Origin: Candidatus Oxydemutatoraceae bacterium
Lineage (GTDB): Bacteria > Pseudomonadota > Gammaproteobacteria > Poriferisulfidales > Oxydemutatoraceae
Length of the DNA: 64,000 nucleotides
Assembly: GCA_965219575.1 (NCBI GenBank)
Contig: OZ244779.1
Span: 1,292,769-1,356,768, forward strand
Direction of reading: 5' to 3'
Under the pieces are notes generated by a model that saw only the letters and a list, made by a program, of their open reading frames with translations, made no database searches and was not told where the DNA came from. Each line of letters begins with the position of its first letter. The stretch's first letter is position 1. This document shows positions 6,001 through 21,184 of this stretch, in pieces. The position numbers were made by a program, and so were the translations under genes.

Positions 6001-9000
6001 GTTCACGGCAACATTCAAAGGCAACGGCTATACGATTTCTAATTTGAAGGTGAATAGACCGGATAGCGACGGTGGGTTATTCGGTGTGATAGACGGTAGC
6101 GAAAGCAATGTCGTAATAGAGAGTCTAGGTTTGTCGGATGTAGATATAGTCGGCGGTGCGCATGTCGGTGGTCTGGTCGGCACTAACCGAGCGGGGGACA
6201 TTCGCAAGAGTTATGTCATCGGTTCTGTGACGACAAGAGGCTACGGCACATCGGAAATGGTGGGCGGTCTGGTCGGTAGGAATATTGCCGGTTCCATCAC
6301 CGAATCATACTCGGAGACACAAGTGAAGGCCAATCTAGCGGCTGAATTATCGGTGGCATTGGCAGGTGGTCTGGTTGCCCTAAACGATGATCGCAGTCGC
6401 ATCGAGAATAGCTATGCGATAGGGTCGGTAGTCGGTCGGGACAGCGTCGGTGGTTTGGTTGCTCTCAATCGAAACTCTAGCGAAATCGTCGACAGCTATG
6501 CGGTGAATAAGGCTATAGCCATCGGCGCGATGTCTAAGGTAGGCGGTTTGGTTGCCGTCAACGATGCGGTGGTCGGCGATAGTTACTGGGATATAGAAGT
6601 GAGTGGTGTCGTATCGAGTGCCGGCGGCACTTCCGCAACCACGATAACACTTCAATCGTCTACGCCGACTTCGCCGATAAACAGTGTTTATAGAAATTGG
6701 GATGCCGATGTATGGGAGTTTTCGGATGCGGGTCGCTATCCTACACTGAAAGCCTTAGACCATGCGTCACTGCTTGCTCCCGATGGAAAGAGTTTGTTAC
6801 AAAGCCTGACCCTATCGGACAATGTGCGACTATTCCCGTCCTTCCATCCGCTGATTTTTGACTACGATCTCATTGCCGAGTCGGGACAGATAGCCGAAGT
6901 GCGATTGAATACCACATCGACACGGGCAGCTACGACGATCGATATCGCTTGTAGTACCGGTTTGGTGTGTTCGTCGGGTATCCCGATGTCGTTTGTATTG
7001 AACGGTAGTGATACACCGGAAATTACCATAACCACGAATAATTCCGATGCCGGCGTGTTGTCGTATAACTTCTCGGTGCGTTACGGCGAACCGAATATCA
7101 AGCGAGTGACGGCAACGACTACAACAGTAATATCGTTGCCGTTAGCGGTAGCCGAAGGTGAGCGTGTTCGTTTGATAGCTTCGTATGATTTCGGTTTGAG
7201 TGCGGATTTGTATCACTATAGATGGCGGCAATCGACAGGTGATGCCTTAAGATTCAACGATATGCAATCGCCGGTTGATACACAGAGTGCCGTATTGGAT
7301 TTTACGGTACCCGGCAATGTAGTGTCTCAGCAAGACGATCGCCGTGTCGTACGGTTGATCTTGGAAATCGTTGTCAACGAAGCCGTGTATCTAAGCAAGG
7401 TACTACCGTTGATAATTTCCAAACGAGATAACGACGCAGCCAGTCGTATTCGCGTGCTTAAAGATGACGATAAACTGCACACTTATACCGTTAAATTTGA
7501 AAGAGCGGACGGTAGCGAGTTTGTAGATCGCGACGGTGGCTTTACCGAAACCTTTATACAATGGCAGCGTCGTCGTAGCGAAGCGGAGAGTTGGATAGAC
7601 TTAGCGTCTACGCCTACCTATACTATTCCGAACGAGGGAAATTATCAATATCGTGCACTCGCTCTGTATGAGGACAATCAAGGTTATCGCGGACAATTTG
7701 AATCTGAGGTCATAGACTATTCGGACATAGACGACGATGGCGATGGTTTGATAGAGATTCGTTATTTGGAAGAATTGGATGCGATACGCTATCGGTTGGA
7801 CGGTAGCGGTTATAAAGCGACCGCAAGTGTGGATAAGATCACTACAGGTTGCCCGTTGGTCAACGGTATAGAGAAATGCCGAGGCTATGAGTTGATGAAT
7901 GACTTGGATTTTAACGACAATGAGAGCTATCGTGCGCTTGATCCGTCGCTACTCAAGAATAGCTGGACGGTGAGCGATTTCACCGACGCAAGCGATTTGG
8001 GTTGGCAGCCTATAGGTGGGTTTAATGCCGTATTCAACGGTAACGGTTATACGATATCCAATATGCAAATAAATCGTAGCGTCGGCAATACAAACAGTAT
8101 AGGTCTATTTTCCCAAATAGGAGCAGTCGGAAAAGTTAAGAACTTGGGGCTTGTAGATCCGACAATCAAAGGTTTAGTCGGTATTAAAAATGTCGGCGGT
8201 ATCGCCGGTGCCATACAACGCGGCGGTGTCATCATCAATAGCCATGTGGTCGGCGATGTCGGCGCGGGAAACACCGATAAAATAATAACAGGTGATGTCG
8301 GATTCGCCGGCGGTAGGGGATTCATAGGGGGACTGGTCGGCTGGAATAGAGGTTTTATACTCAATAGTTATGCAAAGATCAACGTGGTTGCCGAAGACTC
8401 CGGAACGCTTGAAAACAAGCGTGTCGGAGTAGGCGGTTTGGTCGGTAGGAACATAGACGGTGGCAAGGTGTATAACAGCTATGCGACCGGTGAGGTGAAA
8501 GGCCCTTGTGTCGTCGGTGGTTTGGTGGGCAATCAATTTTCCGCCAACTCGGATAGTTTATTGACTCGAAGCGAAATCAAAAACAGCTATGCGACCGGTA
8601 ATGTAGAGACCGGGTTCGGGACGTGCGTAAACTCAAACAACAAATTTGCCGGTGGTTTAGTCGGTTTTAATAATAATTCAAGGGTTGAAAATAGTTATAC
8701 GCTGGGTGAAGTTCTCGGTGACGGTACACGCGGCGGTTTGGTTGCCGGAAAGTTTCCCGTCGGCAATACCTCTATTGCAAACCCGATCAATAGCTATTGG
8801 AACTATGAACAGAATTGTCATTTTGCTGTTTCGTTTGGTTTCGTATTAGGAGTGCAATGTTTCGGAATAACGGGAGGTACCAAGAATGTAAGAATACCGA
8901 ACAACCTTCGAAGTCCTATTGCTCCGAATACTATGTTTAATTCATGTGTTGAGAGTTATGCCGGTGGCTTAGATCCCGAAGATGTATGTACGACCTATGT

Positions 9001-12000
9001 GGGTTGGAATACTGCCGATTGGGATTTCGGTACTACAAAACAATATCCGGCACTCAAATACGGAGTCGGATTGGATAGAAATGCCCCTGGTTGCGACACC
9101 GATCCCAAGACGGCATTGCCGAGTTGTAATGCTTTACTGCCCGGTCAGATTGCCGATACGGTTTTATTGAATAGCCTGAGTGTATCCGCTAATTCAAGCG
9201 CTGTGCGGCTGATCCCGAGCTTCATGCCGAGTAGATTTAACTACGAAGCAATCATCGTAGCCGAAACGGTACCGGCACTTATAAAAGTTGCCACCGGTGT
9301 CGAAGAAGATACCGCAATAACGATTCGTAAAGACGGTGGTGCGCCTTTGATTAAACAATCGGACGGCACCGTGCAGATTAGTACGAACGATTCGTTCAAT
9401 CTCGGTATTAAAACCACAAGCGGAGATGAGAGAGCGGCGAACTATCGAATACAAGTACATTTAAGTTATTTGCCTCAACCGAAAATACTCCAAGTAATCA
9501 ACGCGAGTACTCCCACCGAATTAATCAAAGAGAATATCCTTAGCTTAAGCGAAGGGGATGTCGTCCGCTTCGATGCCTCAAGGAGTTTCGGACCGAACAA
9601 TTCGCGGTTGGATTACCGGTGGAGTCAAGTATCGGGGAAACCCTTACTGTCGGGAATAAGAACCGCATCTACCGGAGAGTTGATGATACCTGTGGATTTA
9701 TTTGCCGAAGACGAGGACGATAGCACGGTGATCCTAAAACTAGAACTGAGCGAGAGCAATAATCCGGCATCTGCGCTAAGCATAGAAATACCGTTATCGG
9801 TGCGCAAGGCAAACAACGGAAATGCCGAAAGTGGTGTGAAATGGATAAATAGCGATACGCTTTCGGCAGGCGATCTGTCGGACGATATAGACGGAGATCC
9901 ACTGATTGATGTAGCCTATCTATGGTCGTCGGAACAAAACGGTAGATTTGTCGCTATACCCGGTGCGACTCGAAAAAGCTATACGCCTCCCGAAAATGCT
10001 CGCAACGCACAATACAGAGTCTCTATAAGCTACACCGATGCACAAGGTTACCGAACCACCGCTCACTACGACGCACCGCAATTTATAACGATTGCCAACT
10101 TCGTCGATAAAGACAGCGACGGTTTGATAGAGATCGAGACACTCGAGGCACTCGATGCGATTCGTTATCAGACGGACGGTAGCGGTTACCGTGCAAGTTC
10201 TACGACGATGATGATTACTACAGGTTGTCCTTTAGTCAACGGTGTAGAGAAATGCCGGGGCTACGAATTAGTCAAGGATTTGGATTTTCTAGACGATGCC
10301 GGCTATAGTTCAACCGCCAATAAAGTAGCTTGGACAACCGGCGCAGGTTGGCAACCTATCGGTATTGTCGCTAACAATGACTGTAGTGATGCGGCTAGCG
10401 ACTGTTTCGCCGCTATTTTGGAAGGCAACGGATATAGCATTTCCAATTTGCGGATCAATAGAGACACCACCGATGAAATAGGTTTGTTTGCCGGAAACAC
10501 CGGCACCATTCGCAATCTCGGATTATCGGAAATAGAAGTAACAGGCAATTCTAGGGTCGGTGGCCTCGTCGGTCGCAACGAAGGTGGACTAATGAATATC
10601 TATGTAGTCGAAGGCAAGGTTGAAGGTCAAAATAACGTTATCGGTCTGTTAACCGGCATCGGCGTGTCGGGTTCGTCGATCATCAATAGTTATGTAATCG
10701 GCACTGTGATAGGTTCTCGTTTTGTCGGTGGTATCTGTGGCATAAACTATGGTGACATGATCGGTAGTTATGCGGTTGCCGATGTTTCGGCACAGCGGGA
10801 GGCAGGTGGTCTGGTCGGCGAGAATCAAGGCACTATCGGCAACAGCTATACATCAGGCTCGGTTAGTATCAATGAGAAAGAACGAGCTGTAGGAGGTCTA
10901 GTCGGTGTATTATGGTCGGGCGGTCGTATTGATAACAGTTACTCGACTGCCGAGGTAAAAACAGACTTTGTTGCAACAGCCAATAGCGATGCGCAGTATG
11001 TAGGTGGTTTAATCGGCAACCGAGAATCACCCAGCCTACAAGTCAATAATAGTTATTGGGATACCGATGCGAGTGGGCGGACGAACTCTTCGGGAGGCGG
11101 TATCGCCAAGACCAAGGCTGAATTGCAAATGCCGACTGTAGCGGGAGCAAGGGTCAATGCTATCTATTACAACTGGGATGCCGACAGATGGGATTTCGGC
11201 ACTTCCGAGGCGTATCCGGCACTCAAATACTACGATAACACTTGTGTCACTGCCACACCGTCGCCGGATTGCGGTAGATTATTGCTCCATCAACGTATCG
11301 GCTTGAGAGATATAAAGCTGGAGCAGAATGTGGAGGGAGAACGACTGTATCTTTCTCCCGATTTTGACTCTACGGTTACAGCTTATACGGTATCGGTGCA
11401 TGCCGATGCGAGCGAATTGGGAATTATCCCGCTAGCGGCTAATCCCGATGCGGATATCGTAGCCGACGGCAAGGTCTTATCGGCAAACCACAGCGGCTAT
11501 ACCATTGCGATAGATACTTCCGAGCCTACCTCTACGGTTATCGAAGTTTCGGCGAGCAATTCGATGGGAACGGAGGATCCCATTGCATATAGATTGACGG
11601 TAAACAATCGTTTGCCCGAGATAGATATTAACGCGCCCGCTTCGATAAGCGAAGGCGAAACCCTTAGATTAAATGCCTCTATAGCAGATGCCGACGGAGA
11701 CGAGTTGCGGTACAGTCTGAGTGCGATTACCGACTTATTGCCGGATTTAGAGGAGACCACCGGCACCGCGGTAGGCGGTGCCGATTCGGTTTATGCGCTT
11801 AACATACCGAGTGATCTGCTCGGTGAGAGGCAAAGCACCGATAATATAAAGATCATGCTGACAGTTGAGGATGGTATGAGTGTTATGAACAAAACGGTGC
11901 GGATATCGATAATCAAAGAAAATAACGGTGTGATATCGGTTGCTACCCCTACGCTGAATGGTTTCACATATACCGTCGGAAATATAGATCTATCGTCGGA

Positions 12001-12319
12001 TACGGACGGAATAAATCCTGTTCCCGAAATAGCTTACCGATGGCAAAAGGAACTGTTGGGCAGCTGGTCGGATATCAATGGTGCCACCGCTCAAAGTTAT
12101 ACCGTCGAGGGTATTATAGGTGACCGCTACCGTGTATTGGTCGATTATACCGATAAGCAGGGTTATAGACATCAAAGCGTTGCATCTTCGGCAGTATCGG
12201 TACCGCAGCAATTTACTTATGATGTTCAGAAATCTAGAAGTGCCGTAAGAACTGTAATGGATCGGGCACCGGGTATTTTCATACATATCAGAGTACTCCC
12301 CGAAGGCCTTCTACGGTAA
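5..12319 (+). CDS. Giant modular surface protein/adhesin (GLUG-like beta-helix modules, DxDxDG Ca-binding-like motifs, cadherin-like beta-sandwich domains); 5' part lies outside the window
   Basis: 4104-aa open frame from the window edge. Seven repeats of the module DxDxDGLIEI..L.AIRY.LDGSGY..GC.GYEL..DLDF..W.PIG..F.GNG.TI.NL / GGLVGxN..I.NSYA.G.V coils / SYWD..WDFG..YP.L.Y / L.P.F..Y beta-sandwich. Colinear with the 21394-39036 paralog from about 26795 onward. Confidence 0.85.
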   Translation: MDAVRHQLDGSGYRADAGSVKITSGCPSAGCRGYELLRDLDFNDAAGYRNADANMGRWTGAGAWQPIGSDRATFTATFKGNNKTIANLSVRAGGGLFTAIGSDSRVAYIDGIGLSAVDIKGDVVAGIAASCVQCTISNSYVIGNIQGTAAVAGLLNTISATNGGRASISNSYFIGNLAVNGPSAVGGGLVGDVDSDLTITDSYVVGRITAEHDDGFIGGLVGVRTSSALDIVNSYASIAATKADVSQGLFGGNRNPSARLAPTVHTSYLDKDISQAEVTLGKLKSTVALQSQAPTTPTDSIYKDWDTDDWDFGTAKQYPAIKYNLQAHATDGDAHCGTADIRRRPDACRTLLRHQGSLLQDLKLSEGLGLSSPFAHTSFDYGISVNADRSTIRMLPTAFNEIATIEVIKDDNAIGETDSGKWTVPIPLNDSGDTVFSLVVKDGKRHSYRYRFVVNRLGIVAQSIDEDGDGFIDISNATHLDAVRHRLDGSAYQQSETVDALYCSNGCSGYELTADIDLAGVEWQPIGSLNEPFSGVFRGNGHTISNLTIKTGNATGMGLFEVIGAGGRVENVGLVNVNIAGQNNVGTIAGYNFGTIINSHADGNLVVVNSYVGGLVGRNNGGTIVNSYANVDVHANNIYAGGLVGWNEANSFIVNSYAIGTVRANNGLAGGLVGSSPKGAKIHNSYAAGDVRVQTDGNLAGGLIASGGLIVSSYYKAGAVISRANSLIGIDKTAVELKAGVPSDDIYTEWDRADWHFGNTEQYPALLYAPANADDTACRQPSLEQLSACNGGLFGALSEHDRAVVCRSHLPRLPEQTPYCGALLPEQRAGLVRLEFSKNASLIPAFNPEIYDYDLVVDSGITFRTTPTAYYGSDTITVNIDDLGSSTSSGRSSSITLNDDLDSIVLRVQSATPGMPTRYTIKVLQDIAVVDGLITIDYLEDLNLMRHSLEQVSATLKDCPIDTEDGVRRCKGYRLVGDLDFKNPTSYRAGNLNPIWTTGSGWQPIGNRSNPFSGLFSGNAHTLSNLRIHDIPVGDIGLFGVVADDARIENIGLLNADIDVDNSRHSLFDIGGLVGENYGEIINSHVVGGRVRGDFFVGGLVGRNEGGTIVNSHANVSVNGRTNITGGLVGSNAIDGKIHNSYASGAVVGNDFVGGLVGISTGDIRNSYASGAVVGNGFVGGLVGELSQQGIEVSNSYAIGKVTGRRLVGGLIGSITNAGIRDAVNASYWDIDTSNITGSVAGIGKTTAELRTPAIGNGIYSNWDGNDWYSESSSQYPALRYTGATDVVARPACRETGDDGAELPICGDLLPDQSIGLSNLARSNRTGQVLLLRPDFNSGIYDYELILKSDAREFSIIPYTFNPDAVITLNDDSETNRHRELRSGKGTTLTIGDIDDLLLTLAVEDRLISGTTQTTLYSIKVSKHSFVTVNDIDEDDDGLIEVRSADDLNAIRYQLDGSGYKADRDDTKITVGCPTTPTVGCKGYELAASIDLSGFDWHPIGVIDATTLDCNDTQSRCFAAIFDGNRALGYEISGLSIATSQRDNVGLFAALADAAQVKNLNLADVEVGGHFGVGSLTAYNAGAIDNSSADGTVAGEHAVGGLVAYNVGRISDSYAYGAVSGDRIVGGLVARNESSGVIANSYSLNRVSGNTGIGGLVALNLGAIANTYASGVVEGVTLIGGLVGDNGGSVRNSYATADIVCTGVPACTSYTVATGGLIGRNTGGIAVNSYWDTGVSNIRISAGGVGKTTLQLQSGSGQSSDASRAYYRWRSSDWHFGDVYQYPILKYTGGSENTLAGLQSYGLASLTIAEVVTLSPNFNTTKLHYRVGVDLDANIKRLHLTPNALDEDATIRIFSDNGFDETIKTGTGSSAIVLHSTATTVIGVEVSGDRRVRYRFEVNYFSSGTKRDVDTDRDGLIEILTLEDLDAMRNALDGKSLRHQNADGVSIKNARGCPMTGCRGYELLRDLDFDNPAHYRTGSVNTAWTSGASWQPIGTQRHPFTATFKGNGYTISNLKVNRPDSDGGLFGVIDGSESNVVIESLGLSDVDIVGGAHVGGLVGTNRAGDIRKSYVIGSVTTRGYGTSEMVGGLVGRNIAGSITESYSETQVKANLAAELSVALAGGLVALNDDRSRIENSYAIGSVVGRDSVGGLVALNRNSSEIVDSYAVNKAIAIGAMSKVGGLVAVNDAVVGDSYWDIEVSGVVSSAGGTSATTITLQSSTPTSPINSVYRNWDADVWEFSDAGRYPTLKALDHASLLAPDGKSLLQSLTLSDNVRLFPSFHPLIFDYDLIAESGQIAEVRLNTTSTRAATTIDIACSTGLVCSSGIPMSFVLNGSDTPEITITTNNSDAGVLSYNFSVRYGEPNIKRVTATTTTVISLPLAVAEGERVRLIASYDFGLSADLYHYRWRQSTGDALRFNDMQSPVDTQSAVLDFTVPGNVVSQQDDRRVVRLILEIVVNEAVYLSKVLPLIISKRDNDAASRIRVLKDDDKLHTYTVKFERADGSEFVDRDGGFTETFIQWQRRRSEAESWIDLASTPTYTIPNEGNYQYRALALYEDNQGYRGQFESEVIDYSDIDDDGDGLIEIRYLEELDAIRYRLDGSGYKATASVDKITTGCPLVNGIEKCRGYELMNDLDFNDNESYRALDPSLLKNSWTVSDFTDASDLGWQPIGGFNAVFNGNGYTISNMQINRSVGNTNSIGLFSQIGAVGKVKNLGLVDPTIKGLVGIKNVGGIAGAIQRGGVIINSHVVGDVGAGNTDKIITGDVGFAGGRGFIGGLVGWNRGFILNSYAKINVVAEDSGTLENKRVGVGGLVGRNIDGGKVYNSYATGEVKGPCVVGGLVGNQFSANSDSLLTRSEIKNSYATGNVETGFGTCVNSNNKFAGGLVGFNNNSRVENSYTLGEVLGDGTRGGLVAGKFPVGNTSIANPINSYWNYEQNCHFAVSFGFVLGVQCFGITGGTKNVRIPNNLRSPIAPNTMFNSCVESYAGGLDPEDVCTTYVGWNTADWDFGTTKQYPALKYGVGLDRNAPGCDTDPKTALPSCNALLPGQIADTVLLNSLSVSANSSAVRLIPSFMPSRFNYEAIIVAETVPALIKVATGVEEDTAITIRKDGGAPLIKQSDGTVQISTNDSFNLGIKTTSGDERAANYRIQVHLSYLPQPKILQVINASTPTELIKENILSLSEGDVVRFDASRSFGPNNSRLDYRWSQVSGKPLLSGIRTASTGELMIPVDLFAEDEDDSTVILKLELSESNNPASALSIEIPLSVRKANNGNAESGVKWINSDTLSAGDLSDDIDGDPLIDVAYLWSSEQNGRFVAIPGATRKSYTPPENARNAQYRVSISYTDAQGYRTTAHYDAPQFITIANFVDKDSDGLIEIETLEALDAIRYQTDGSGYRASSTTMMITTGCPLVNGVEKCRGYELVKDLDFLDDAGYSSTANKVAWTTGAGWQPIGIVANNDCSDAASDCFAAILEGNGYSISNLRINRDTTDEIGLFAGNTGTIRNLGLSEIEVTGNSRVGGLVGRNEGGLMNIYVVEGKVEGQNNVIGLLTGIGVSGSSIINSYVIGTVIGSRFVGGICGINYGDMIGSYAVADVSAQREAGGLVGENQGTIGNSYTSGSVSINEKERAVGGLVGVLWSGGRIDNSYSTAEVKTDFVATANSDAQYVGGLIGNRESPSLQVNNSYWDTDASGRTNSSGGGIAKTKAELQMPTVAGARVNAIYYNWDADRWDFGTSEAYPALKYYDNTCVTATPSPDCGRLLLHQRIGLRDIKLEQNVEGERLYLSPDFDSTVTAYTVSVHADASELGIIPLAANPDADIVADGKVLSANHSGYTIAIDTSEPTSTVIEVSASNSMGTEDPIAYRLTVNNRLPEIDINAPASISEGETLRLNASIADADGDELRYSLSAITDLLPDLEETTGTAVGGADSVYALNIPSDLLGERQSTDNIKIMLTVEDGMSVMNKTVRISIIKENNGVISVATPTLNGFTYTVGNIDLSSDTDGINPVPEIAYRWQKELLGSWSDINGATAQSYTVEGIIGDRYRVLVDYTDKQGYRHQSVASSAVSVPQQFTYDVQKSRSAVRTVMDRAPGIFIHIRVLPEGLLR

Positions 12320-12378: not shown

Positions 12379-12669
12379 GGGCTGTTGAAAAAGTATCCAC
12401 GAACCGTAGGGGCGGACTTGCATGTCCGCCCGTGACGCGTTGGTCGGCACGATTTATACATTCATTCACCCGATTTATGGAAACCAAAACCATGCAGCGC
12501 AAGCGGTTACGGTTATTCTGGACAGTACTTAAGGGCAGACATCAGAGTTGCCGATTGACCTACCGGCTCAATCGGCGGCTTTATACCGCCCCTACGGCTT
12601 GGTGGTTATTATAAATTCAAGGCGTGCAGCGGTTGGGTTTGAGCGATGCCCGCACTTTTTCAACAGCCC
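12379..12669. mobile_element. Non-autonomous MITE-like element with terminal inverted repeats, containing a REP-like hairpin and the 27-bp palindrome
   Basis: Terminal IRs GGGCTGTTGAAAAAGT ... ACTTTTTCAACAGCCC; internal GTAGGGGCGGAC-TTGCAT-GTCCGCCC hairpin at about 12406-12431; related copies at 13860, 20976, 40754, 51522 and 56399-56478. Confidence 0.8.
12550..12576. repeat. 27-bp palindrome family D (GCCGATTGA-CCTACCGGC-TCAATCGGC), representative of 10 copies
   Basis: Copies start at 12550, 13771, 15393, 20915, 21270, 40846, 51573, 51734, 56399 and 60808, in both orientations. Confidence 0.9.
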
Positions 12670-12830
12670 AAGCGTGTCTGAATCAGTTAATCTCTCTCCT
12701 TCGGAAGAGAATATCACCCTCTAATATACCGTTCAACATGTATTTACTACCGTTCATCGATTTGTTTCCCACCCTACTCAATACCGGGTTTAGGGTAGAT
12801 GTTTTACACCCAATTTATAGGAGATTTACT

Positions 12831-13779
12831 ATGGATGAAAAACATCTCGGATACTTAGACTTGACAAAAGATATTTCCTTTAAGCGATACTTGTCGATCA
12901 ATAAGCAAGTATTGTTCTCGTTGATTAAGAGCTTCCTGCCGACCTCCGATAATGCGCCGGATATGATGACATTCAACCCCGGCATACTCAACCCTGCATC
13001 CAAAACTGCAAATCAACAAAGCCGATCGGGCGATAAGCTACATCTGCAGGATAGTTCTATCCCACCGGACACACCGGGTGGCAAACAGGTTGTGCTAGAC
13101 CTCCATGTCAAGTTACATAGCGGTGAGAATATCAACATAGAGATGCAGGGCTACTCTCAAAAGGACTTCTTTAGTAGAATGTTGGCTTATTGGGTGCAGT
13201 TGCACTCTTATGGTATGAGGCGTGGGCAGAAGTTTGATCAGATTGATCCGAGCTACTTACTGGTGTTTACTCGGTTCACGGTGTTTGATGAAGAGGACTA
13301 TATAAACGAGACAATAATCACTCTGCGTAAGCATCGGCATAAAGAATTGACTAAGGACTTTGGGTTGGTGATAGTGGAATTGAGCAAGTTCAACAAGAAC
13401 TACCTTGAGTTGGTTGATATGACGGATAGGTGGTGCTATCATCAAGCACTCGGCGGAATTGACGGCTGAGCAAGTAAAGCATTTATCACAAGACGGAGAG
13501 ACGAAGATGGCATTAAAACATTTAGAGAAAGTATCAAAAGAGAATAGAGAGTACTGGAACGCTATATTGCTAGAAAGACAAGAGTGGGACCGCCACGTGA
13601 GAAAGCAAGAGATCATGGAAGAAGTCAAGGCAGAAGGGTTGGCAGAAGGTAAAGTAAAAAGAGATCACGAAATTGCTTTGAACATGTTGCAAAAAGGCCT
13701 GAAGGTTTCGTTGATTTCCGAAGTCACGGGTTTATCTGCCGACGAGATTAAACAGCTAAAGAGTAGAACTGCCGATTGA
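12831..13779 (+). pseudogene. Rpn family recombination-promoting nuclease/putative transposase (PD-(D/E)XK), frameshifted at about 13440
   Basis: AGGAG SD before ATG 12831; motifs D.SFKRY, VLDL.VK..INIEMQ, RML.YW, ELSKF, WCY. The C-terminal EG.AEG..EIALNML.KG..SLISEVTGLS..EI..L segment is in another frame. Join: TGG TGC TAT C ATC AAG CAC (WCY/IKHSAELTAEQ). A sequencing error cannot be excluded. Confidence 0.8.
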
Positions 13780-14009
13780 GCCGATAGATCAATCGACAGA
13801 GACGAGATGAGCCTTTTAACTATTTAGGTGGATAAATGGATAATTGTGCAGACATTCTTGGGGCTGTTGAAGAAGTGAGGACATCGTTCAAACCCAATCG
13901 CTGTGCGCCGTGAATACTTGCAAACCACCTGTAGGGGCGGACTAACATGATGCCTTATTAAAAATCAAGCCATTTTATTCATTTTTTATCTCCTTTTTTG
14001 AGTATCGAT

Positions 14010-14996
14010 TCAGGATGCAGATGCGCAACAATAATTCGGGTCAAACGGCTTCCTGTATCTGAGTATTCCGTAAATAATACGTGCCAGCTTATGGGCGCAA
14101 GCAACAATAATCTGCTTTTTAGTTAACTCCGGACGCCGCCGACTTAATTGGTCGGCAAAGGCACGGATGATTGGGTTATGAACCCGTGCCGAGAGTGCCG
14201 CCATAAACAGCAGGGTGCGCAGTTCGGCATCGCCCATTTTAGAGATATGCGCCTTCGCCTCGTAGTTGCCGGACTGCCGGCGCCTTGGGTTGAGACCGAC
14301 ATAGACTGCGAATTGCTCTGCGTTATCAAATGTCTTATCATTGAAAACAGCACACAGGGCAATCGCCGTCTGAGTGCCGATGCCGGTAATGGAACACAGC
14401 AACTGCTCAAGCTCTGCGAGTTGCTCGTCTTGAGCGATAATTCGCTCCATTTCGGCATCCTGCTTAGCAATCTGCTTGTCAAAGTATCTCAGGTTCTCAG
14501 CTGCTCGTTTTTTTTGCCTTGCATCGCATAAGGTTTTCATACAATTACTTAACCCGGTATGATCTTTGACTAATTGCCTGCGCACTTTTCGTGCATCTCT
14601 CAAGGCGAGTGCAGTCGGTGACGGCATTTGCCAATCTTTACCGTCAACAGCGAATGCGAACAGTGCGATGAGCCGCGCATCATCGCGATCGGTTTTATTG
14701 TGCATACCAAGCGATTTACGGAAGCTGGCAACCTGCGCCGGTTTGACAATCCTAATCGGATGTTGCGCCAGATAGCCGGCTTTGCACAGGGCGAACTCAA
14801 AACCGCCGGTGGCTTCAACACAGATGCGACAGTGCGGTGCGCAGTGTTTGCTAGCCCAAGCTAACAGTTGCTTAATGCCTTTGGCATCATTGCTAAATTG
14901 TGCCTCGGCAAAACTATTATCGGTGAATAATAGAGCGGCCTCTAAAGTGTCTTTAGAGACATCCACGCCGATTATGGCAGGGTGTTTGTTTTCCAT
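14010..14996 (-). CDS. IS110 family DEDD recombinase/transposase
   Basis: GVDVSKD, VEATG, KTDRDDA (DEDD RuvC-like), ITGIG HhH, GLNP..RQSG catalytic-Ser motif, ISKMG..LR..L, ACAHKLARIIY. GGAGG SD favours ATG 14996 over 15011. Confidence 0.95.
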   Translation of the reverse strand: MENKHPAIIGVDVSKDTLEAALLFTDNSFAEAQFSNDAKGIKQLLAWASKHCAPHCRICVEATGGFEFALCKAGYLAQHPIRIVKPAQVASFRKSLGMHNKTDRDDARLIALFAFAVDGKDWQMPSPTALALRDARKVRRQLVKDHTGLSNCMKTLCDARQKKRAAENLRYFDKQIAKQDAEMERIIAQDEQLAELEQLLCSITGIGTQTAIALCAVFNDKTFDNAEQFAVYVGLNPRRRQSGNYEAKAHISKMGDAELRTLLFMAALSARVHNPIIRAFADQLSRRRPELTKKQIIVACAHKLARIIYGILRYRKPFDPNYCCASAS

Positions 14997-15057
14997 AATA
15001 ATATCCTCCATTATGGTTGTTCAGTGAATAAAATACTCGGTAGCCAGTTCAGGAAAG

Positions 15058-15225
15058 TATGACTACGCCGCCCACACAGGTAAATACGAGATCTAAAGTC
15101 TCAAGCTGCCTTCCGAGCTCTATAGTCATAGCGCCGGAGGAGTGCTTTTCATGCTAACAGGCTTTAATGCCTCGTCCGTCCTGCGGCGTGTCTCCTCCGA
15201 CTTCCTAGGTACTGCAACTACCTAA
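15058..15225 (-). ncRNA. Putative IS110 bridge RNA (5' hairpin, target-binding loop, donor-binding loop)
   Basis: Stems by eye: TAGGTA/TACCTA hairpin; GTCGGAGGAG (15201-15192) / CTCCTCCGGC (15142-15133) with inner AGGC/GCCT; TATGACTAT (15130-15122) / GTAGTCATA (15066-15058) with inner GAGA/TCTC. Loop segments match the target and donor sequences. RNA ends are approximate. Confidence 0.8.
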
Positions 15226-15574
15226 GCATTTATCTTATATAAATAAGCTAGGGTTTAATATACCTGTCCGCCCGTAACGCGTTGGTCGGCACGATTTATA
15301 CATTCATTCATTCAATTTATGGAAACCAAAACCAAATGGCGCAAAGCGGTTAGGTTTGTGCATGACGTTAGTTAAGGGCAGACATCAGAGTTGCCGATTG
15401 ACCTACCGGCTCAATCGGCGGCTTTATACTGCCCCTACGGCTTGGTGGTTATTATAAATTCACGGCGCAAGCGGTTACGGTTGCAAGCTGACGATACTTT
15501 TTCAACAGTCCCACATCGTAAATTTGCATATATGTCAGATTACACTATAATTTATTCCAGTACTCCTCAATATC

Positions 15575-18500
15575 ATGCTTAAAAATATAATAATGCGAGG
15601 TTTATTTACCTCTCGATTTATTCGGCAAGCAGTCGTTTTGTCCGTCTTGTGTTGCTTGCCGGTTATCGGTGTCGCACAATCCACTTTGGTATTCGGCACG
15701 CCGTCGATCGCACCTGCCGAACTTCGTTGGGGGGGGGATTATACACTATCGTTTCTTGCGATTAGCCAAGAACAACCCACGCAAGCGACGACGCTGACGC
15801 TCCATATAACGGAGAATGGTATCAGCAGGCGCATAGACGAAACGCCCTATGGTCTGGCAAACGAATTTTTGCCGTTGCAGAGACAGGTTTCCATACCCGC
15901 TTTAGGTATCAGAACTTCTGCTATGATCAATGCACGAGGGACGGCAGGCATCGGTCTTGTCGGAACGGTTGCTTTTAGATATTGCGACGATACGCAAACA
16001 CTCTGTACGGAGGCTTTCAATGTCGATTATCTAAGCGACACGCCGAGCCGTGATATAAACGGGAATTACCGGCTGTCCATCACAACATCGACCGTGGTAT
16101 CGGGGTCGTGTGCTGCGGTGCGTGAGCGAGAACAGCGAATTGAGATGAGCCAAGCAGGCAACACGGCAAGTTATCGTTTCACCGACGATTTCGGATTGTC
16201 GGCGATGCTTCAGGCGGCGATAAGTTCCAACACTTATGTATTCACGAGGCAATACGGCACTGCGCCGGCATTTAACGGCACGCGCACACTGATCGTACGA
16301 GCCGAGTTTAGCGACAACGATAACGGCAACGGGCGCGCGTATTGGTCATACCAACGCGCCGACGGCAACTTGTGTCGTGGCACTTACGAGGTGCAATATA
16401 GCAAGCGATCGGGGGCGATCAAAGTACGGGCGCGGGTATTTTTAGAAGGTGCGCTGAGTGGCGGTATCTCTAATATAGTTTCAGGTGCTACACCGCCTAC
16501 GCTGCCCGAGCGAGTGCAAGACACGGTGCTGTCCGAGTCGGGTGCATTATACGCATTGAGAGACGACCACACGCTATGGACGGTTAATCCGTCGGGTTCA
16601 AGACAACAACTAGTGTCCACCAGTTTTAAGGTCGGCGAGGTGGATATTCATGATTTGGTCTTTGTCGGGCGTAGCGACAGCACCGACAGGCTGTATATCG
16701 TCGATAGTTTTCTGCGTGCGGTGATTGCGGTTGATTTGACCGACGGCAGTCGCAATGTGGTTTCCGGGTGCGACATCGCCAACCGCTGTCCGTCGGGGCA
16801 ATACCGGGTGGGCGACGGTGTGCCGTTAACGCAACCGACCGATGCGGTGTTGGACGAGGCTGGCAATCGCCTGATTATCACCGATACTTATTTGAGCGCA
16901 CTTGTCGCAGTGGATTTAACGAACGGCAACCGCAGTGTGGTTTCGGGATGCACGGCAAACGATTTATGTCCTGTTGAGGAACGCAACATCGGAGACGGCA
17001 CCGTCATGCTACACCCGCAAGCGTTGAGCATCAATAGTTCTGTGACCCGTATCGTCGTCGTAGACGACCGGCTGGACGCACTGCTCGTGGTGGATGCGAC
17101 GACCGGTGAGAGAGTCATCGTTTCGGGCTGTTTGGTGCGAGCGATATGCGTGATACCGGAAAGGGGTTCCGGCCCCTCGTTCGATCAACCGATTGCAGTG
17201 GTGCTGGACGACGATGCCGGTTTGGCGTATGTTGCGGACAATGGTTTGAGGGCTGTAGTCGAGGTTGACCTTGATAACGGCAACCGCACCGTTCTATTGA
17301 GTCCGGTCACCGTCCGAGCACCGTATCATCTGATCTTAGACGCAGACACGGAGCGGGTGCTGGTCTACAGTGATGCCGACGGTTCGCTGACTGCGATTCC
17401 CCAAGCGGCGCGCACCCCGACGCAACTAACGACCTATATCAGAACCGGAAGCACCGCAACCTCGCCGCCTGCGCCGCCGCGCGATTTGATTCTTGAGGCA
17501 CGCGACGATGTCATTGCGCTCAGCTGGCGACCGGTAAATCGGGCAACCTCGTATAAGATTTATTGGAACAGCTTTGCCGATATTAATGCCGCTCAAGCGG
17601 ATCAAGTCATCTCGGATATCTACGGCACCGGCTATGTACACACCGGGCTAATCCGAGGGCAACTTTATTACTACGCGGTGAGTGCAGTCAATGAGCAGGG
17701 TGAGAGTGCCGTCAGCCCGGCGGTGAGCATAATGTTGCCGCTACCAACCGGCAACGACGAAACACCCCCGACTGCGCCGGTCATCGTGTCTGCGTATGCT
17801 TCTTCCACGACCGCCATTGCACTGGATTGGATGGCATCGACCGACGACCGCAGTGCTGCCGAGCAGATCGTCTACGAAGTGCATGTCTCCGAAAGCACCG
17901 CAACCACGATCGGCAAAGACACCGAACGGGTGATGGTGCAGGGCATCTATAGTGCCAATGTCGATGACCTCAAAACCAGCCAGACCTACTATGTGCATGT
18001 TGCCGCACTGGACGAGGCAGGCAACCGTAGCCTCTCGGAGATGATATCGATACGCACGATGTCGATGATGCCGAAATTGTCCACCCAAAACGAGGTGGTG
18101 CTGATACGGATTGATACGGAACTGAACGCCGACGGCACGATTATCGTAGACCGTCGCGACGATCTGAAAGTGGGACAAGTTGCGATCATGATGGGACAAG
18201 ACGACAGCTATCTGAGAAGGATTACCCGTATTGAAATCGTCGGTAGCGACCAAATGCTACTCTATACCGAACAGGCATCGCTGGCCGATGTATTCTCAGA
18301 CCTCAGCTTGAACATGAATGTTAGACTGGAGGATGTGGACGACGATGCGGCGATTGCGGCAGCGAAATCGGCACAAGTGCGTGCCGAGCAACGAGGCGAG
18401 CCGGCACCGCCGGCGGACACCAAACTCAGGCGGTTCTCCCCGGCACTGCGCTCGCCGATGTCGGTTCCGCCGTCCGAAGTGTGGCCGTATCAACCGATCT

Positions 18501-20833
18501 TCGAGGGCGGCGAGCAAATCCGTGAGATGCACTGGCCGGATAGCGGCTTTAGACTACGCCAGTCCGAACCGCTCAGCCAAACCGACGATCTACTCGATAG
18601 CATCAAAGATGCGGTAGGGCTACGCTCGGAGCAACAGCCGTCCGAACCGGATATTCCTGCGACTTATGAACATGAAAATATCCGCATTATCACAACAGGC
18701 TTTTTCGGTCTATTCGGCGACATCATAAAAGTTTGGTATCCGCCTTATGTGACAGCCGAAGTCAACAAGGTTGCCTCGTTTGATGTTTATGTTGAATATC
18801 CCGAGAACTTTAGCGAACGGTGTTCGGTGACCATAGACGACATCACCCAAAGAGGTACGAGCCGGGGAAGGCAGGGTGCTTCGGTGAGAGCTAAACCGGC
18901 AAGTGCCGATGCAAGGATTGTGGAACATCGTGTGCGCTGGCGAACTTACGAACGGCATAAGAGTCGCGATGAATGGAAAATGGAGCTTTTGTTCGGCTAT
19001 CCATGCGAGCGAAGTATTACGGTGCCGATTGCTGTTTCTTCCGATAAACCTGTGAATCTTTCCTTCCAAGGAGAGGTGACGATACCGATACCCTCAATAC
19101 CCGATGGCGAACAGCGATTCCATGGCGATATGGATCTGGATTTTGACCCTGAAATTAAAATCTCTTATGATCGAGAATCATCCAAACACGGAACTCTCGA
19201 GGTCGTTGTCGGTGGCGATGTAGATCTAGACATACTACTAGAAATAATTACTGCATCCGGATATACGCTAGATGGAGAAAAAGAAATAGGTAAAAAGAAA
19301 AGTTTCTATCGGCTCATATTTGTACCTACTTTGGGAATACCGATACCGGTTGTGGTTAACGGTGAGCTTGGCTTTAAGGTAAGAGGTGAGGCTGGAGTAT
19401 CGGCCGAGATGAACATTGCCCAGACATTTCAATCAACCTATAAATTAAGGGCAGGTTTTAGATACAAAAACGGTAGATTTGTGCCTATCAGCAGTGCCGA
19501 CAGTAGCAGCGAATACGAAATCACGGTTAAGACAGCAGCCGGAATGATGGTTAAGTTTTCGCTGATTCCTCAACTGGACTTGGGGCTTTACGCCTCCATT
19601 CTTACGAATGTTCAATTAATTCCTTATGTGCAGGGCAATGGCGATGTTGAGGGAATATTCGAGCGAGGGAGTGGTGTTTCTTTAGAGGCAGCTATTGACA
19701 GCAGTGATTATCGCTTCACGAGGTTGGATTCAAGTTTAGGAATTGCGTCAAACATAAATGTGGATCTTGAACCTATTCTTATCCCCTTCGCCGAATCGTA
19801 TGAATTATTTGACTTGCGTCGTGCGATTACATCGCTACCGGAAATGCAGCTGAGACAAGGTAGAAATGACGAAAATACCTATACCGTGCGGGTTACACCG
19901 GGGCAATGGTTTGGTAGGGAGAGGAACAAAATCCAACAGGGCATGTGGTCGGTTGTTCCACCCGAAGGTGCGCCTAGATTGATAAGAGTTGACGAAAACA
20001 CCGTCCGAGTGGATGACTCACAAGAGATAGAAGAAGACAAATACAAGCTACGCTATACCGGACACAGTCGATACGGTAGAGTAATTCAGCAATATCAGGA
20101 AATACCAATCGCTGTGCAACTACTGGGTGTATGCGATAGAACACCACAGGTGCGGGATGAAATCAAACAACGGGTTGACAAAGACGACTGTGCCGAGATT
20201 AGTGCGGAAGACCTCGCTACGATTACAAGAATGTTTCTTGATGAAGAGTCGATATTTCCTTCATTATCTTCTTTATTGACCGGTGATTTTAGCGGTTTAA
20301 CTAGTCTGGAGTGGTTGGATTTGGGCGACAACGAGCTAAGCACGCTCCCCGAGGGTATCTTTAGCGGTTTAACTAGTCTGGGGCGGTTGGATTTGGATGG
20401 CAACGAGCTAAGTACGCTCCCCGAGGGTATCTTTAGCGGTTTAACTAGGCTGTATGAGTTGAGTTTGGATAACAACAAGCTAAGTACGCTCCCCGAGGGT
20501 ATCTTTAGCGGTTTAACTAGGCTGGAGTGGTTGGGTTTGGGCGACAATAATCTAAGTACGCTCCCCGAGGATATTTTTAGCGGTTTAACTAGGCTGTATG
20601 AGTTGAGGTTGGATAACAACAAGCTAAGTACGCTGCCCGAGGATATCTTTAGCGGTTTAACTAGTCTGGAGTATTTGTATTTGTATGGTAACGAGCTAAG
20701 CACGCTTCCCGAGGATATCTTTAGTGGTTTAACTAGTCTGCAGTGGTTGGTTTTGAGGAACAACAATTTGGGTAACGATTACTGTACGGCTTTGAGAAAT
20801 CAGCTATCACTTAGTCGCTTTAGCTGTGATTAA
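15575..20833 (+). CDS. Secreted mosaic protein: signal peptide, beta-propeller-like repeats, two fibronectin type III domains, beta-rich region, C-terminal leucine-rich repeats
   Basis: Hydrophobic N-terminus ..VVLSVLCCLPVIGVA/Q; repeats VAVDLTNGNRSVVSGC; FN3 motifs P..PRDL..LSW.PV..ATSYKIYW..GL..GQLYYYAVSAVNEQGES; LRR N-cap VCDRTPQVRD..C; 24-aa LRRs. Start codon uncertain. Confidence 0.85.
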   Translation: MLKNIIMRGLFTSRFIRQAVVLSVLCCLPVIGVAQSTLVFGTPSIAPAELRWGGDYTLSFLAISQEQPTQATTLTLHITENGISRRIDETPYGLANEFLPLQRQVSIPALGIRTSAMINARGTAGIGLVGTVAFRYCDDTQTLCTEAFNVDYLSDTPSRDINGNYRLSITTSTVVSGSCAAVREREQRIEMSQAGNTASYRFTDDFGLSAMLQAAISSNTYVFTRQYGTAPAFNGTRTLIVRAEFSDNDNGNGRAYWSYQRADGNLCRGTYEVQYSKRSGAIKVRARVFLEGALSGGISNIVSGATPPTLPERVQDTVLSESGALYALRDDHTLWTVNPSGSRQQLVSTSFKVGEVDIHDLVFVGRSDSTDRLYIVDSFLRAVIAVDLTDGSRNVVSGCDIANRCPSGQYRVGDGVPLTQPTDAVLDEAGNRLIITDTYLSALVAVDLTNGNRSVVSGCTANDLCPVEERNIGDGTVMLHPQALSINSSVTRIVVVDDRLDALLVVDATTGERVIVSGCLVRAICVIPERGSGPSFDQPIAVVLDDDAGLAYVADNGLRAVVEVDLDNGNRTVLLSPVTVRAPYHLILDADTERVLVYSDADGSLTAIPQAARTPTQLTTYIRTGSTATSPPAPPRDLILEARDDVIALSWRPVNRATSYKIYWNSFADINAAQADQVISDIYGTGYVHTGLIRGQLYYYAVSAVNEQGESAVSPAVSIMLPLPTGNDETPPTAPVIVSAYASSTTAIALDWMASTDDRSAAEQIVYEVHVSESTATTIGKDTERVMVQGIYSANVDDLKTSQTYYVHVAALDEAGNRSLSEMISIRTMSMMPKLSTQNEVVLIRIDTELNADGTIIVDRRDDLKVGQVAIMMGQDDSYLRRITRIEIVGSDQMLLYTEQASLADVFSDLSLNMNVRLEDVDDDAAIAAAKSAQVRAEQRGEPAPPADTKLRRFSPALRSPMSVPPSEVWPYQPIFEGGEQIREMHWPDSGFRLRQSEPLSQTDDLLDSIKDAVGLRSEQQPSEPDIPATYEHENIRIITTGFFGLFGDIIKVWYPPYVTAEVNKVASFDVYVEYPENFSERCSVTIDDITQRGTSRGRQGASVRAKPASADARIVEHRVRWRTYERHKSRDEWKMELLFGYPCERSITVPIAVSSDKPVNLSFQGEVTIPIPSIPDGEQRFHGDMDLDFDPEIKISYDRESSKHGTLEVVVGGDVDLDILLEIITASGYTLDGEKEIGKKKSFYRLIFVPTLGIPIPVVVNGELGFKVRGEAGVSAEMNIAQTFQSTYKLRAGFRYKNGRFVPISSADSSSEYEITVKTAAGMMVKFSLIPQLDLGLYASILTNVQLIPYVQGNGDVEGIFERGSGVSLEAAIDSSDYRFTRLDSSLGIASNINVDLEPILIPFAESYELFDLRRAITSLPEMQLRQGRNDENTYTVRVTPGQWFGRERNKIQQGMWSVVPPEGAPRLIRVDENTVRVDDSQEIEEDKYKLRYTGHSRYGRVIQQYQEIPIAVQLLGVCDRTPQVRDEIKQRVDKDDCAEISAEDLATITRMFLDEESIFPSLSSLLTGDFSGLTSLEWLDLGDNELSTLPEGIFSGLTSLGRLDLDGNELSTLPEGIFSGLTRLYELSLDNNKLSTLPEGIFSGLTRLEWLGLGDNNLSTLPEDIFSGLTRLYELRLDNNKLSTLPEDIFSGLTSLEYLYLYGNELSTLPEDIFSGLTSLQWLVLRNNNLGNDYCTALRNQLSLSRFSCD
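20288..20770 (+). repeat. 72-bp coding tandem repeat (about 7 LRR units FSGLTxLxxLxLxxNxLSTLPExI)
   Basis: Near-identical TTTAGCGGTTTAACTAG...CTAAGTACGCTCCCCGAGG units at a 72-bp period. Confidence 0.9.
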
Positions 20834-20975: not shown

Positions 20976-21184
20976 GGGGCTGTTGAAAAAGTGCGGCATC
21001 GTACGAATCCAATCACTTGCGCCATTTGGTTTTGGTTTCCATAAATTGGATGGATGAATGTATAAATCGTGTAAGCACAACGCGTTACGGGCGGACATGC
21101 TAGTCCGCCCCTATGGGTGGTTTGCAAATATTCACGGTGCAAGCGGTTGGATTTTTGCGCTAACAATACTTTTTCAACAATCGC
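20976..21184. mobile_element. MITE copy (reverse orientation) carrying an empty IS110 target site
   Basis: GGGGCTGTTGAAAAAGT ... ACTTTTTCAACAATCGC; internal GGGCGGACATGCTAGTCCGCCC at 21089-21110. Confidence 0.8.

Follow-up and report, generated by a model that had tools for sequence, protein, structure and literature searches.

An IS110 element with a CA core that probably reaches a repeated hairpin of its host by bridge-RNA guidance

How does an insertion sequence come to lie at one and the same position of a short repeated hairpin wherever it occurs in a genome? This question is raised by a locus in a stretch of 64,000 nucleotides (nt) from Candidatus Oxydemutatoraceae bacterium (assembly GCA_965219575.1, contig OZ244779.1, positions 1,292,769 to 1,356,768), which in its whole length is called the window here. 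The minus strand of the window carries, at 13948-15266, a complete insertion sequence of the IS110 group, which is 1317 bp long and has the dinucleotide CA at either boundary. The element most likely moves like IS621 of Escherichia coli, that is, by recombination guided by a bridge RNA, in this case at CA and with a repetitive extragenic palindromic (REP) hairpin of the host as multicopy landing site; we regard this reading as very probable. It rests on the anatomy of the element, the identity of the insertion sites, the covariation of guides and sites, and the homology and catalytic residues of the recombinase, and we infer in addition that the RNA is transcribed, that circles are formed and that the element is active at present.

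The layout is that of the IS110 group, with a non-coding left end of 268 nt up to the ATG at 14996, a right end of 60 nt and no terminal inverted repeats. Inside the element there is one long open reading frame (ORF; 14010-15011, listed with 333 aa). The likely product has 328 aa and begins at 14996, because relatives start at the sixth codon and GGAGGA is found 8 nt before that ATG. Two Pfam domains were detected in the protein, DEDD_Tnp_IS110 (PF01548, residues 14-160, E 3e-21) and Transposase_20 (PF02371, residues 203-285, E 2e-22). A search of solved structures returned two matches only, the IS621 transposase (E 4e-44) and the ISCro4 transposase (PDB 9t56, E 4e-41), and both alignments span residues 13-326. 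The catalytic residues D17, E66, D108, D111 and S247 lie opposite D11, E60, D102, D105 and S241 of IS621 when a chain offset of two is allowed for. A complete and intact IS110 recombinase had been claimed in an earlier sequence-only reading of the window, and the Pfam domains, the homology to IS621, the full catalytic set and the open frame all agree with that claim.

The window's genome, a single contig of 2.37 Mb, was searched for further copies. Seven full-length copies were found, with DNA identities of 100, 98, 98, 98, 81, 80 and 80%, as well as one element fragment of 80 nt. In all seven the frame is open and the five catalytic residues are kept. For comparison, relatives were searched in one genome per species, which yielded 47 loci, 28 of which are close relatives (58–70% protein identity) from three metagenome-assembled genomes (MAGs) of uncultured candidatus Porisulfidus sp. 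Three entries were dropped from a table of 35 elements (L034, in which the target loop was not found, and L035 and L036, in which the right end was not found). The resulting set of 32 elements, parsed at both ends, comprises the seven own copies and 25 elements from the three related MAGs.

The seven copies in the window's genome all lie at the same position and in the same orientation within the same REP hairpin. Their left junctions read GGGCGGA-CA-G(G/A)TAT and their right junctions AAGGCAT-CA-TG(C/T)(T/A)A-GTCCGCCC, which in the window copy become GGGCGGA-CA-GGTAT and AAGGCAT-CA-TGTTA, respectively. Beyond the REP repeat the flanks of the copies are unrelated to each other. All 32 elements have CA at both junctions, while intact sites contain a single CA. 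There is therefore no true target duplication, but the same core dinucleotide is present at both ends, as in the IS110 group. As CA is the only sequence that left and right junctions share in all 32 elements, the core is CA, and the claim of the sequence-only reading that the core differs from the CT of IS621 is borne out. The same reading had named two intact sites, and both are present, GGGCGGACATGCTA at 21089-21102 (plus strand) and GGGCGGACATGCAA at 12431-12418 (minus strand). It had also asked whether other copies sit at GGGCGGA^CA, which is the case for all seven.

The rebuilt insertion site is the hairpin GGGCGGAC-N6-GTCCGCCC, with a perfect stem of 8 bp and a loop of 6 nt. The core CA lies at the border of stem and loop, and the right half of the target forms the loop. 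In the window's genome 206 copies of this hairpin with a perfect stem were counted, and their loops are ATGTTA (53), ATGCAA (40), ATGCCA (34), ATGCTA (34), ATATAA (21), ATACAA (16) and a few others. The hairpin is surrounded by a loosely conserved context of about 100 nt. The repeat had been labeled a REP or a miniature inverted-repeat transposable element (MITE); the first half of this label fits the 206 hairpins with perfect stems, whereas the second is not borne out. All seven full copies are on the minus strand of the contig, and the probability that all seven share one strand is about 0.016, given that the 204 sites of the form CA(T/C)NNNA are split 101 to 103 between the strands. The GC-skew profile of the genome is irregular, and the orientation of the copies could not be related to replication.

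Next, the left end was compared with the two presumed substrates, the target GGGCGGA-CA-TGCTA and the circle-junction donor AAGGCAT-CA-GGTAT. Positions are numbered as for IS621, with the left half at 1-7, the core at 8-9 and the right half at 10-14 (PMC11208158, PMC11208160). The best matches follow each other in the order left target guide (LTG), right target guide (RTG), left donor guide (LDG) and right donor guide (RDG), and each of two internal loops has one pair of them, on its 5′ and its 3′ side. The LTG has an A.C mismatch at target position 3 and a G.T wobble at position 9. The RTG of the window copy matches its own right target, TGTTA, at 6/7, and the four other copies with this RTG lie at TGCTA. 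The mismatch of the LDG falls on donor position 7, which the work on IS621 describes as mismatch-tolerant (PMC11208158, PMC11208160). The RDG reaches 8/9 when it is read contiguously, but 7/7 to donor positions 14-8 when a bulge of 2 nt is allowed (AT, two unpaired bases, ACCTG); in IS621, too, nine RNA nucleotides of the RDG pair discontiguously with seven donor bases (PMC11208158, PMC11208160).

To control for chance, 5000 dinucleotide shuffles of the left end were generated. An exact 7/7 match to the right target half arose in 104 of them and a bulged 7/7 match to the right donor half in 74, while all four guide matches occurred jointly in none. The guide strings and coordinates of the sequence-only reading were all found in the sequence as given. 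Recounting led to the same values for the LTG (7/9 with one G:T wobble), the LDG (7/9) and the RDG (8/9, or 7/7 with the bulge), and the RTG TAGCATG is indeed the exact reverse complement of CATGCTA (7/7). The IS621-type layout of the guides that it had proposed is supported by these shuffles and, for the right guides in particular, by their covariation with the sites.

This natural covariation is the strongest evidence that the putative bridge RNA guides the element. In the window's genome, five elements have the RTG TAGCATG and lie at TGCTA (four) or TGTTA (the window copy), and both elements with the RTG TTGCATG lie at TGCAA. TGCTA accounts for 38 and TGCAA for 42 of 213 sites, so that the binomial tails are 0.0043 and 0.039, respectively. 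The same two subfamilies also differ in their donors, GGTAT being combined with the guide ACCTG and GATAT with the guide ATCTG. Among the 32 elements, the RTG matches its own site at 7/7 in 25 cases, at 6/7 in six and at 5/7 in one. Four RTG types track the sites, for example TAGCATG with TGCTA, TTGCATG with TGCAA, and TAACATG with TGTTA, the last forming the largest group. The RDG matches its donor at 7/7 in every element, with C or T in the guide following G or A in the donor, and the two bulged bases, TT or TC, are free to vary. The LDG is invariant apart from a match of 8/9 instead of 7/9 in three of the 32 elements.

The picture for the LTG is less uniform. Its match is 8/9 in two elements, 7/9 in ten, 6/9 in two, 5/9 in 17 and 1/9 in one. 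Nevertheless, the canonical register was the best of nine shifts (-4 to +4) in all six subfamilies. Where the REP arm GGGCGGA is replaced by G(A/G)GAGGG, the LTG GGACGGAC is replaced by forms that carry GAGGGC or GAGAGGA and not GGACGGA, a partial covariation at positions 4 and 7.

The left end varies mainly in its guides. When both modules are aligned (155 columns), 16 of the 38 guide columns are variable versus 15 of the 117 scaffold columns (p 2e-4, one-sided Fisher test), and for the target guides alone the values are 10 of 16 versus 21 of 139; these p-values overstate the case because the sequences are related. The bridge-RNA region is 94–95% identical between elements whose recombinases are only 58–70% identical, and the differences fall mostly on guide positions. 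The RNA is thus conserved above the protein, and therefore either the constraint on the scaffold is very strong or left ends are exchanged between elements. One copy, c5 (G000:C1:1384837-1386161, minus strand, locus L005), is a chimera of two subfamilies. Up to about position 215 its left end, and with it all of the bridge RNA, is the same as in the 98% subfamily, whereas the gene and the right end are those of the 80% subfamily, the protein of which is identical at 220 of 328 positions. It sits at TGCTA, the A-type site that matches its RNA. It may have transposed in this chimeric form or may have been formed where it now lies.

The left end most likely encodes a bridge RNA of about 200 nt, which is predicted to consist of a 5′ hairpin and two internal-loop modules. 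A consensus fold was calculated from an alignment of ten distinct left ends from the window's genome and the relatives. It begins with a small hairpin and an 8-bp 5′ stem-loop (15226-15204). The target module has a basal stem of 10 bp and 3 bp, a large internal loop and an inner hairpin of 4 bp, and the donor module has stems of 9 bp and 5 bp, an internal loop and an inner hairpin of 5 bp. For structural covariation only, six divergent left ends from a fifth genome of the genus were added and aligned with a covariance model built here. With these copies, compensatory changes were found in 12 of 36 pairs (six helices). Cells were paired in 94.4% of cases, compared to 31–45% when the partners were slid by one to three columns, and the covariation score was reached by none of 500 shuffles. 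This is fair, but not strong, support, because the alignment was fitted to the model and the double changes come mostly from one lineage. An Rfam search of 13500-15700 at E values up to 10 gave four chance-level matches (E 3.4-9.7), none of them in the left end, and no family among 4227 Rfam models matches the left-end RNA. The model built here had no matches in 19 distant IS110 loci (L037-L055); with an effective sequence number of 0.9 it is too narrow for wider homology. Homology to the IS621 bridge RNA is therefore deduced from architecture and not from sequence.

Further elements of the published IS621 scheme were sought around the guides and at the ends. In IS621 the handshake guides lie directly 3′ of the RTG and RDG (PMC11208158, PMC11208160). 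Here, the base after the RTG is A and donor position 7 is T in all 32 elements, while target position 7 is A in 14 and G in 18. The base after the RDG is T in 31 of the 32; it can pair with A at target position 7 in 14 elements and wobble with G in 17, and in one element G stands opposite G. These bases appear compatible with the scheme, and those noted in the sequence-only reading, A in loop 1 and T in loop 2, are present and can pair with the other substrate in the window copy. The handshake is weak evidence, however, because nothing covaries, the A of the target loop and the T of the donor both being invariant. When the right end, one CA and the left end are joined, a predicted promoter arises in all 32 elements, with TTGATT or TTGACT, a spacer of 17 nt and TATATT. 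The donor is flanked by a subterminal inverted repeat. In 11 elements it is TTTAAT...ATTAAA; in 18 it is TTAAAT...ATTTAA, with a change on both sides of one pair, and in three it contains one mismatch. The coordinates of all features are collected in Table 1.

Table 1. Features of the element in the window, ordered along its minus strand
Feature	Position	Strand	Basis or remark
Left target half, GGGCGGA (5′ arm of the host REP hairpin)	15267..15273	-	Identical in 7/7 own copies
Core dinucleotide CA, left copy	15265..15266	-	Sole sequence common to both junctions, 32/32 elements
TATATT, predicted -10 half of the junction promoter, left end	15257..15262	-	Inferred from sequence
ATTAAA, right half of the 6-bp subterminal inverted repeat flanking the 14-bp donor	15254..15259	-	Perfect in 29/32 elements
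5′ stem-loop of the predicted bridge RNA	15204..15226	-	8 pairs, one with compensatory change
Predicted target-binding loop module (basal stem, LTG, inner hairpin, RTG)	15133..15201	-	Helices 1-3; 7/17 pairs changed on both sides
LTG, GGACGGACG	15173..15181	-	7/9 plus one wobble to GGGCGGACA; canonical register best
RTG, TAGCATG	15150..15156	-	Reverse complement of CA+TGCTA (target 8-14); covaries with target across subfamilies
Putative handshake guide of the target loop, AA	15148..15149	-	First A pairs donor T7 and mismatches target position 7, 32/32 elements
Predicted donor-binding loop module (basal stems, LDG, inner hairpin, RDG)	15058..15130	-	Helices 4-6; 5/19 pairs changed on both sides
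LDG, AAGGCAGCT	15104..15112	-	7/9 to AAGGCATCA; three relatives with T at position 7 reach 8/9
RDG, ATTTACCTG = AT(TT)ACCTG	15077..15085	-	Nine RNA bases to seven donor bases CAGGTAT
Putative handshake guide of the donor loop, TG	15075..15076	-	T versus target position 7
Recombinase gene, 328 aa from ATG 14996	14010..14996	-	GGAGGA 8 nt upstream; listed ORF start 15011, 5 codons earlier
TTGATT, predicted -35 half of the junction promoter, right end	13963..13968	-	Sequence
TTTAAT, left half of the subterminal inverted repeat	13957..13962	-	Repeat comparison
Left donor half, AAGGCAT (final bases of the right end)	13950..13956	-	Invariant in 32/32 elements
Core dinucleotide CA, right copy	13948..13949	-	Junction sequence
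Right target half TGTTA, then REP 3′ arm GTCCGCCC	13935..13947	-	Junction and REP sequences

If the element operates like IS621, the LTG and RTG of the first module would pair with the target, and the LDG and RDG of the second module would pair with the joined ends, AAGGCAT-CA-GGTAT. A tetramer of the DEDD/Ser recombinase would then exchange strands at the shared CA, and the base 3′ of each right guide would pair with the other substrate only after the top strands had been exchanged. Formation of the circle would join the -35 motif of the right end to the -10 motif of the left end, which could boost expression of the RNA and the recombinase. Present activity is plausible because near-identical copies exist at four loci and all seven frames are open. 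The element might also become the programmable tool for which the sequence-only reading had proposed it as a candidate. Sixteen public run entries contain the stretch or part of it, all of them contigs, and no RNA dataset is listed. The contigs of four runs cover 13500-15700 in short pieces, none of which spans the element or shows a circle or excision joint, although rare forms are invisible in contigs. At 15265 and 13949, loose contig ends continue into an intact REP hairpin; since the flank is itself a repeat, they are not assignable to this locus.

Several observations weigh against guidance by a bridge RNA of the IS621 type. The case for function is built on sequence comparison. A match of at least 7/9 to the left target half was found in 1255 of the 5000 shuffles and one to the left donor half in 1233 (about 25% each); taken alone, the left guides therefore do not exceed chance. 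The LTG reaches only 5/9 plus one wobble in the largest related subfamily, which comprises 17 elements. The A.C mismatch at LTG position 3 is conserved, and the REP arm that would match the LTG perfectly, GGACGGACAT, occurs four times versus 246 occurrences of GGGCGGACAT; these counts also rule out that the mismatch reflects a common REP variant. Opposite the second core base the LTG has G, A or T and the LDG has T, so that the left guides mostly do not pair with the core A. The handshake base of the donor loop does not covary, as T stays when target position 7 changes from A to G, and one element has G.G. The 32 elements are related, and the number of independent events is small: the RTG has roughly four states, and the RDG has switched once or twice. 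For the RNA, one of 52 alifold pairs is compensatory among the ten close left ends, which is due to their identity of 94–95%, and the covariation seen otherwise comes largely from one divergent genome, in an alignment fitted to the model. The check by folding and covariance suggested in the sequence-only reading accordingly had two outcomes: the two-loop fold covaries (12/36 pairs), but a single sequence is not exceptionally stable (z -1.49, with 19 of 200 shuffles folding equally well). Lastly, no sigma-70-like promoter placed to drive the RNA of the integrated element was found in a scan of 13900-15400, which gave four weak sites versus 1.8 expected.

The weakness of the left target guide leaves room for a contribution of the REP stem to recognition. 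In such a variant, the right guides and the core would provide the sequence match, and the left half would be recognized mainly as a DNA hairpin of the REP stem and not via the LTG. The LTG matches, mostly of 5–8 out of 9 and alone not above chance, would be in accordance with this, as would the persistence of the A.C mismatch although the matching REP arm is rare, and a site made up of a perfect 8-bp stem and a 6-nt loop with the core at their border. For ISPpu10, another REP-targeting IS110 element, the stem-loop of the target has been reported in a preprint to add specificity. However, that stem-loop is a 5′ extension pairing with the left target half and has another geometry, the LTG follows the REP arm from subfamily to subfamily at positions 4 and 7, and its canonical register is best of nine in 6/6 subfamilies. 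We therefore consider it rather unlikely that the left half is read in this way. It is still less likely that the copies look intact but are immobile relics of a past burst, so that the agreement of guides and sites would record history only. The truncated left-end remnants that are all the fifth genome of the genus contains would fit a burst that has ended, and the missing promoter for the integrated state, the lack of an RNA dataset and the lack of a circle or empty-site joint in public contigs, which cannot show rare forms, point the same way. Yet four copies at four different loci are 98–100% identical, all seven frames are open with the catalytic residues kept, and related genomes contain up to 18 model matches. 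In addition, weak expression of the bridge RNA from integrated copies has also been reported for the active IS621 (PMC13626964).

That the protein alone chooses the site, the complementarity of the left end being coincidental or captured REP sequence, can be regarded as very improbable. The left-guide matches, which are within chance according to the shuffles, would allow it, but all four guide matches together did not occur in any of the 5000. Moreover, the RTG and RDG covary with the sites across subfamilies whose proteins differ by 30–40%, the variation of the left end is concentrated in guide columns, and the chimeric c5, with the left end of subfamily A and the gene of subfamily B, sits at an A-type site. 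Taken together, guidance by a bridge RNA of the IS621 type at a CA core remains by far the most probable explanation for the position of the element.

The distribution of the element is narrow. In the protein search an isolated clade of 19 clusters at 49–98% identity was followed by a drop to at most 37%. The RNA model gave seven full matches and one partial match in the window's genome, had matches in all four other genomes of the genus and had none in 14 genomes that represent five further genera of the family. The clade is thus confined to one genus among the 19 genomes searched. In the fifth genome of the genus (G015), six diverged left-end copies (L064-L069, 52-116 bits) lie outside REP hairpins, with flanks such as GTGTCAAAC-CA. 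No right end was found at the expected distance, the gene is missing in four of the six, and their targets could not be rebuilt; these loci are taken to be decayed remnants. At two loci of the related MAGs (L019 and L029, positions about 1200-1260), a partial copy of the element's own left end precedes the full element. This partial copy ends in ...GATG-CA or ...GGAGA-CA and not in a REP arm, while the right target still matches at 6–7 of 7. The arrangement looks like the result of recombination at CA inside the left end of another copy, and it is reminiscent of the "half-match" events of a 2026 preprint.

An orphan relative of the RNA that comprises the target loop only was found at G000:C1:2280561-2280720 (plus strand; loci L063/L070). 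The 5′ stem-loop is present in it, as are the basal stem GTCGGAGGAG...CTCCTCCGGC and an inner hairpin with a compensatory change, but an additional hairpin of 8 bp replaces the RTG, and the donor loop and the recombinase gene are absent. A perfect TATAAT lies directly upstream. Two further genomes of the genus have kept the orphan at this locus, with 87% and 68% identity and with the same small genes downstream of it, one of them prepilin-like. The orphan could be a relic that has been retained or an RNA that has been domesticated, and its conservation may point to a half bridge RNA that is kept by the host or acts in trans.

In the window, the element lies between two very large ORFs on the plus strand. 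The ORF at 5-12319, which begins near the start of the window, encodes a repetitive protein of 4104 aa. The ORF at 15575-20833 encodes 1752 aa with C-terminal leucine-rich repeats, and its start has a paralogue of 94% identity elsewhere in the genome. The neighbor at the right end (12624-13779, plus strand) encodes a "transposase" of the PD-(D/E)XK nuclease family (PF12784, E 6e-21), followed by an overlapping frame of 106 aa; it is regarded as another multicopy element because there are 20 matches in the same genome and many in relatives. Both flanks of the window copy were searched across the genus for an empty orthologous site, but in no relative are they adjacent. Because of this, and because the right flank belongs to the multicopy family, there is no empty-site comparison.

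Predictions of bridge RNAs exist for thousands of IS110 elements (PMC11208160), and a 2026 preprint has analyzed 32,190 loci (10.64898/2026.10.21.760802). The second core base is described as almost invariantly T among IS621 and related orthologues in the paper on the IS621 structure (PMC11208158, PMC11208160), and the cores used for engineering in the available accounts are CT, GT, AT and TT, that is, NT only. In the full-text literature searched there was no mention of a CA core in combination with an IS110 bridge RNA, a search that did not cover supplementary element tables, which may list such cores; a non-CT core was mentioned only in the paper by Durrant et al. We put forward only tentatively, as a possibility and not as the likelier outcome, that the clade is a natural and currently mobile lineage of bridge recombinases with a CA crossover that is restricted to one genus, has its guides rewritten as the REP drifts and may include a half bridge RNA. 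If this were true, the second core base would not be mechanistically fixed as T. The scaffold, about 95% identical while the proteins diverge to 58–70% and only the guides are rewritten, would then exemplify natural reprogramming within and between genomes; the two subfamilies of the window's genome, which differ by one RTG base and one RDG base and are each found at the matching REP and end, would be an instance. If a CA core worked in an assay, the range of sites for bridge recombinases would be wider, and it would be possible to test how the second core base is read.

In comparison with known systems, the element is most similar to IS621, with which it shares the fold family and catalytic residues of the recombinase, the probable guide order LTG/RTG/LDG/RDG, with LTG and LDG reading the bottom strand and RTG and RDG the top strand, the discontiguous RDG (9 nt to 7 nt), the mismatch-tolerant position 7 of the left donor half and putative handshake bases 3′ of the right guides. 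Also alike are the -35 motif in the right end and the -10 motif in the left end, the short subterminal inverted repeat and the REP target. In contrast, the core is CT in IS621 and CA in all 32 elements here, the natural RTG pairs over 7 nt instead of 4 in wild-type IS621, and the subterminal repeat has 6 bp compared to 2–3 bp in the IS621 type. The proteins are distant, and N84 of IS621 is opposite K90 here. ISCro4 (IS622) of Citrobacter rodentium has a homologous recombinase and, according to a preprint, a two-loop RNA with handshake guides, but its core is CT and it is close to IS621 and not to the CA-core clade. ISPpu10 of Pseudomonas putida likewise inserts into many REP copies with a GC-rich stem-loop and uses a bridge RNA, whereas its duplicated dinucleotide is CT and its stem-loop is a 5′ extension; here the core is at the border of stem and loop, and the right target half is the loop. 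ISPpu9 of P. putida and, in the work on seekRNA, ISEc21 form circles, recombine at a shared dinucleotide and use REP-like or specific targets, but ISPpu9 recombines at AG (CT on the other strand) and has a downstream small RNA gene, and the available accounts of the two mention no CA core. In summary, the mechanism and the use of REP as a multicopy landing site are already known from IS621, ISPpu10 and ISPpu9. The distinguishing point here is the CA core, which sets the clade apart from the IS621 subgroup, but not from its mechanism.

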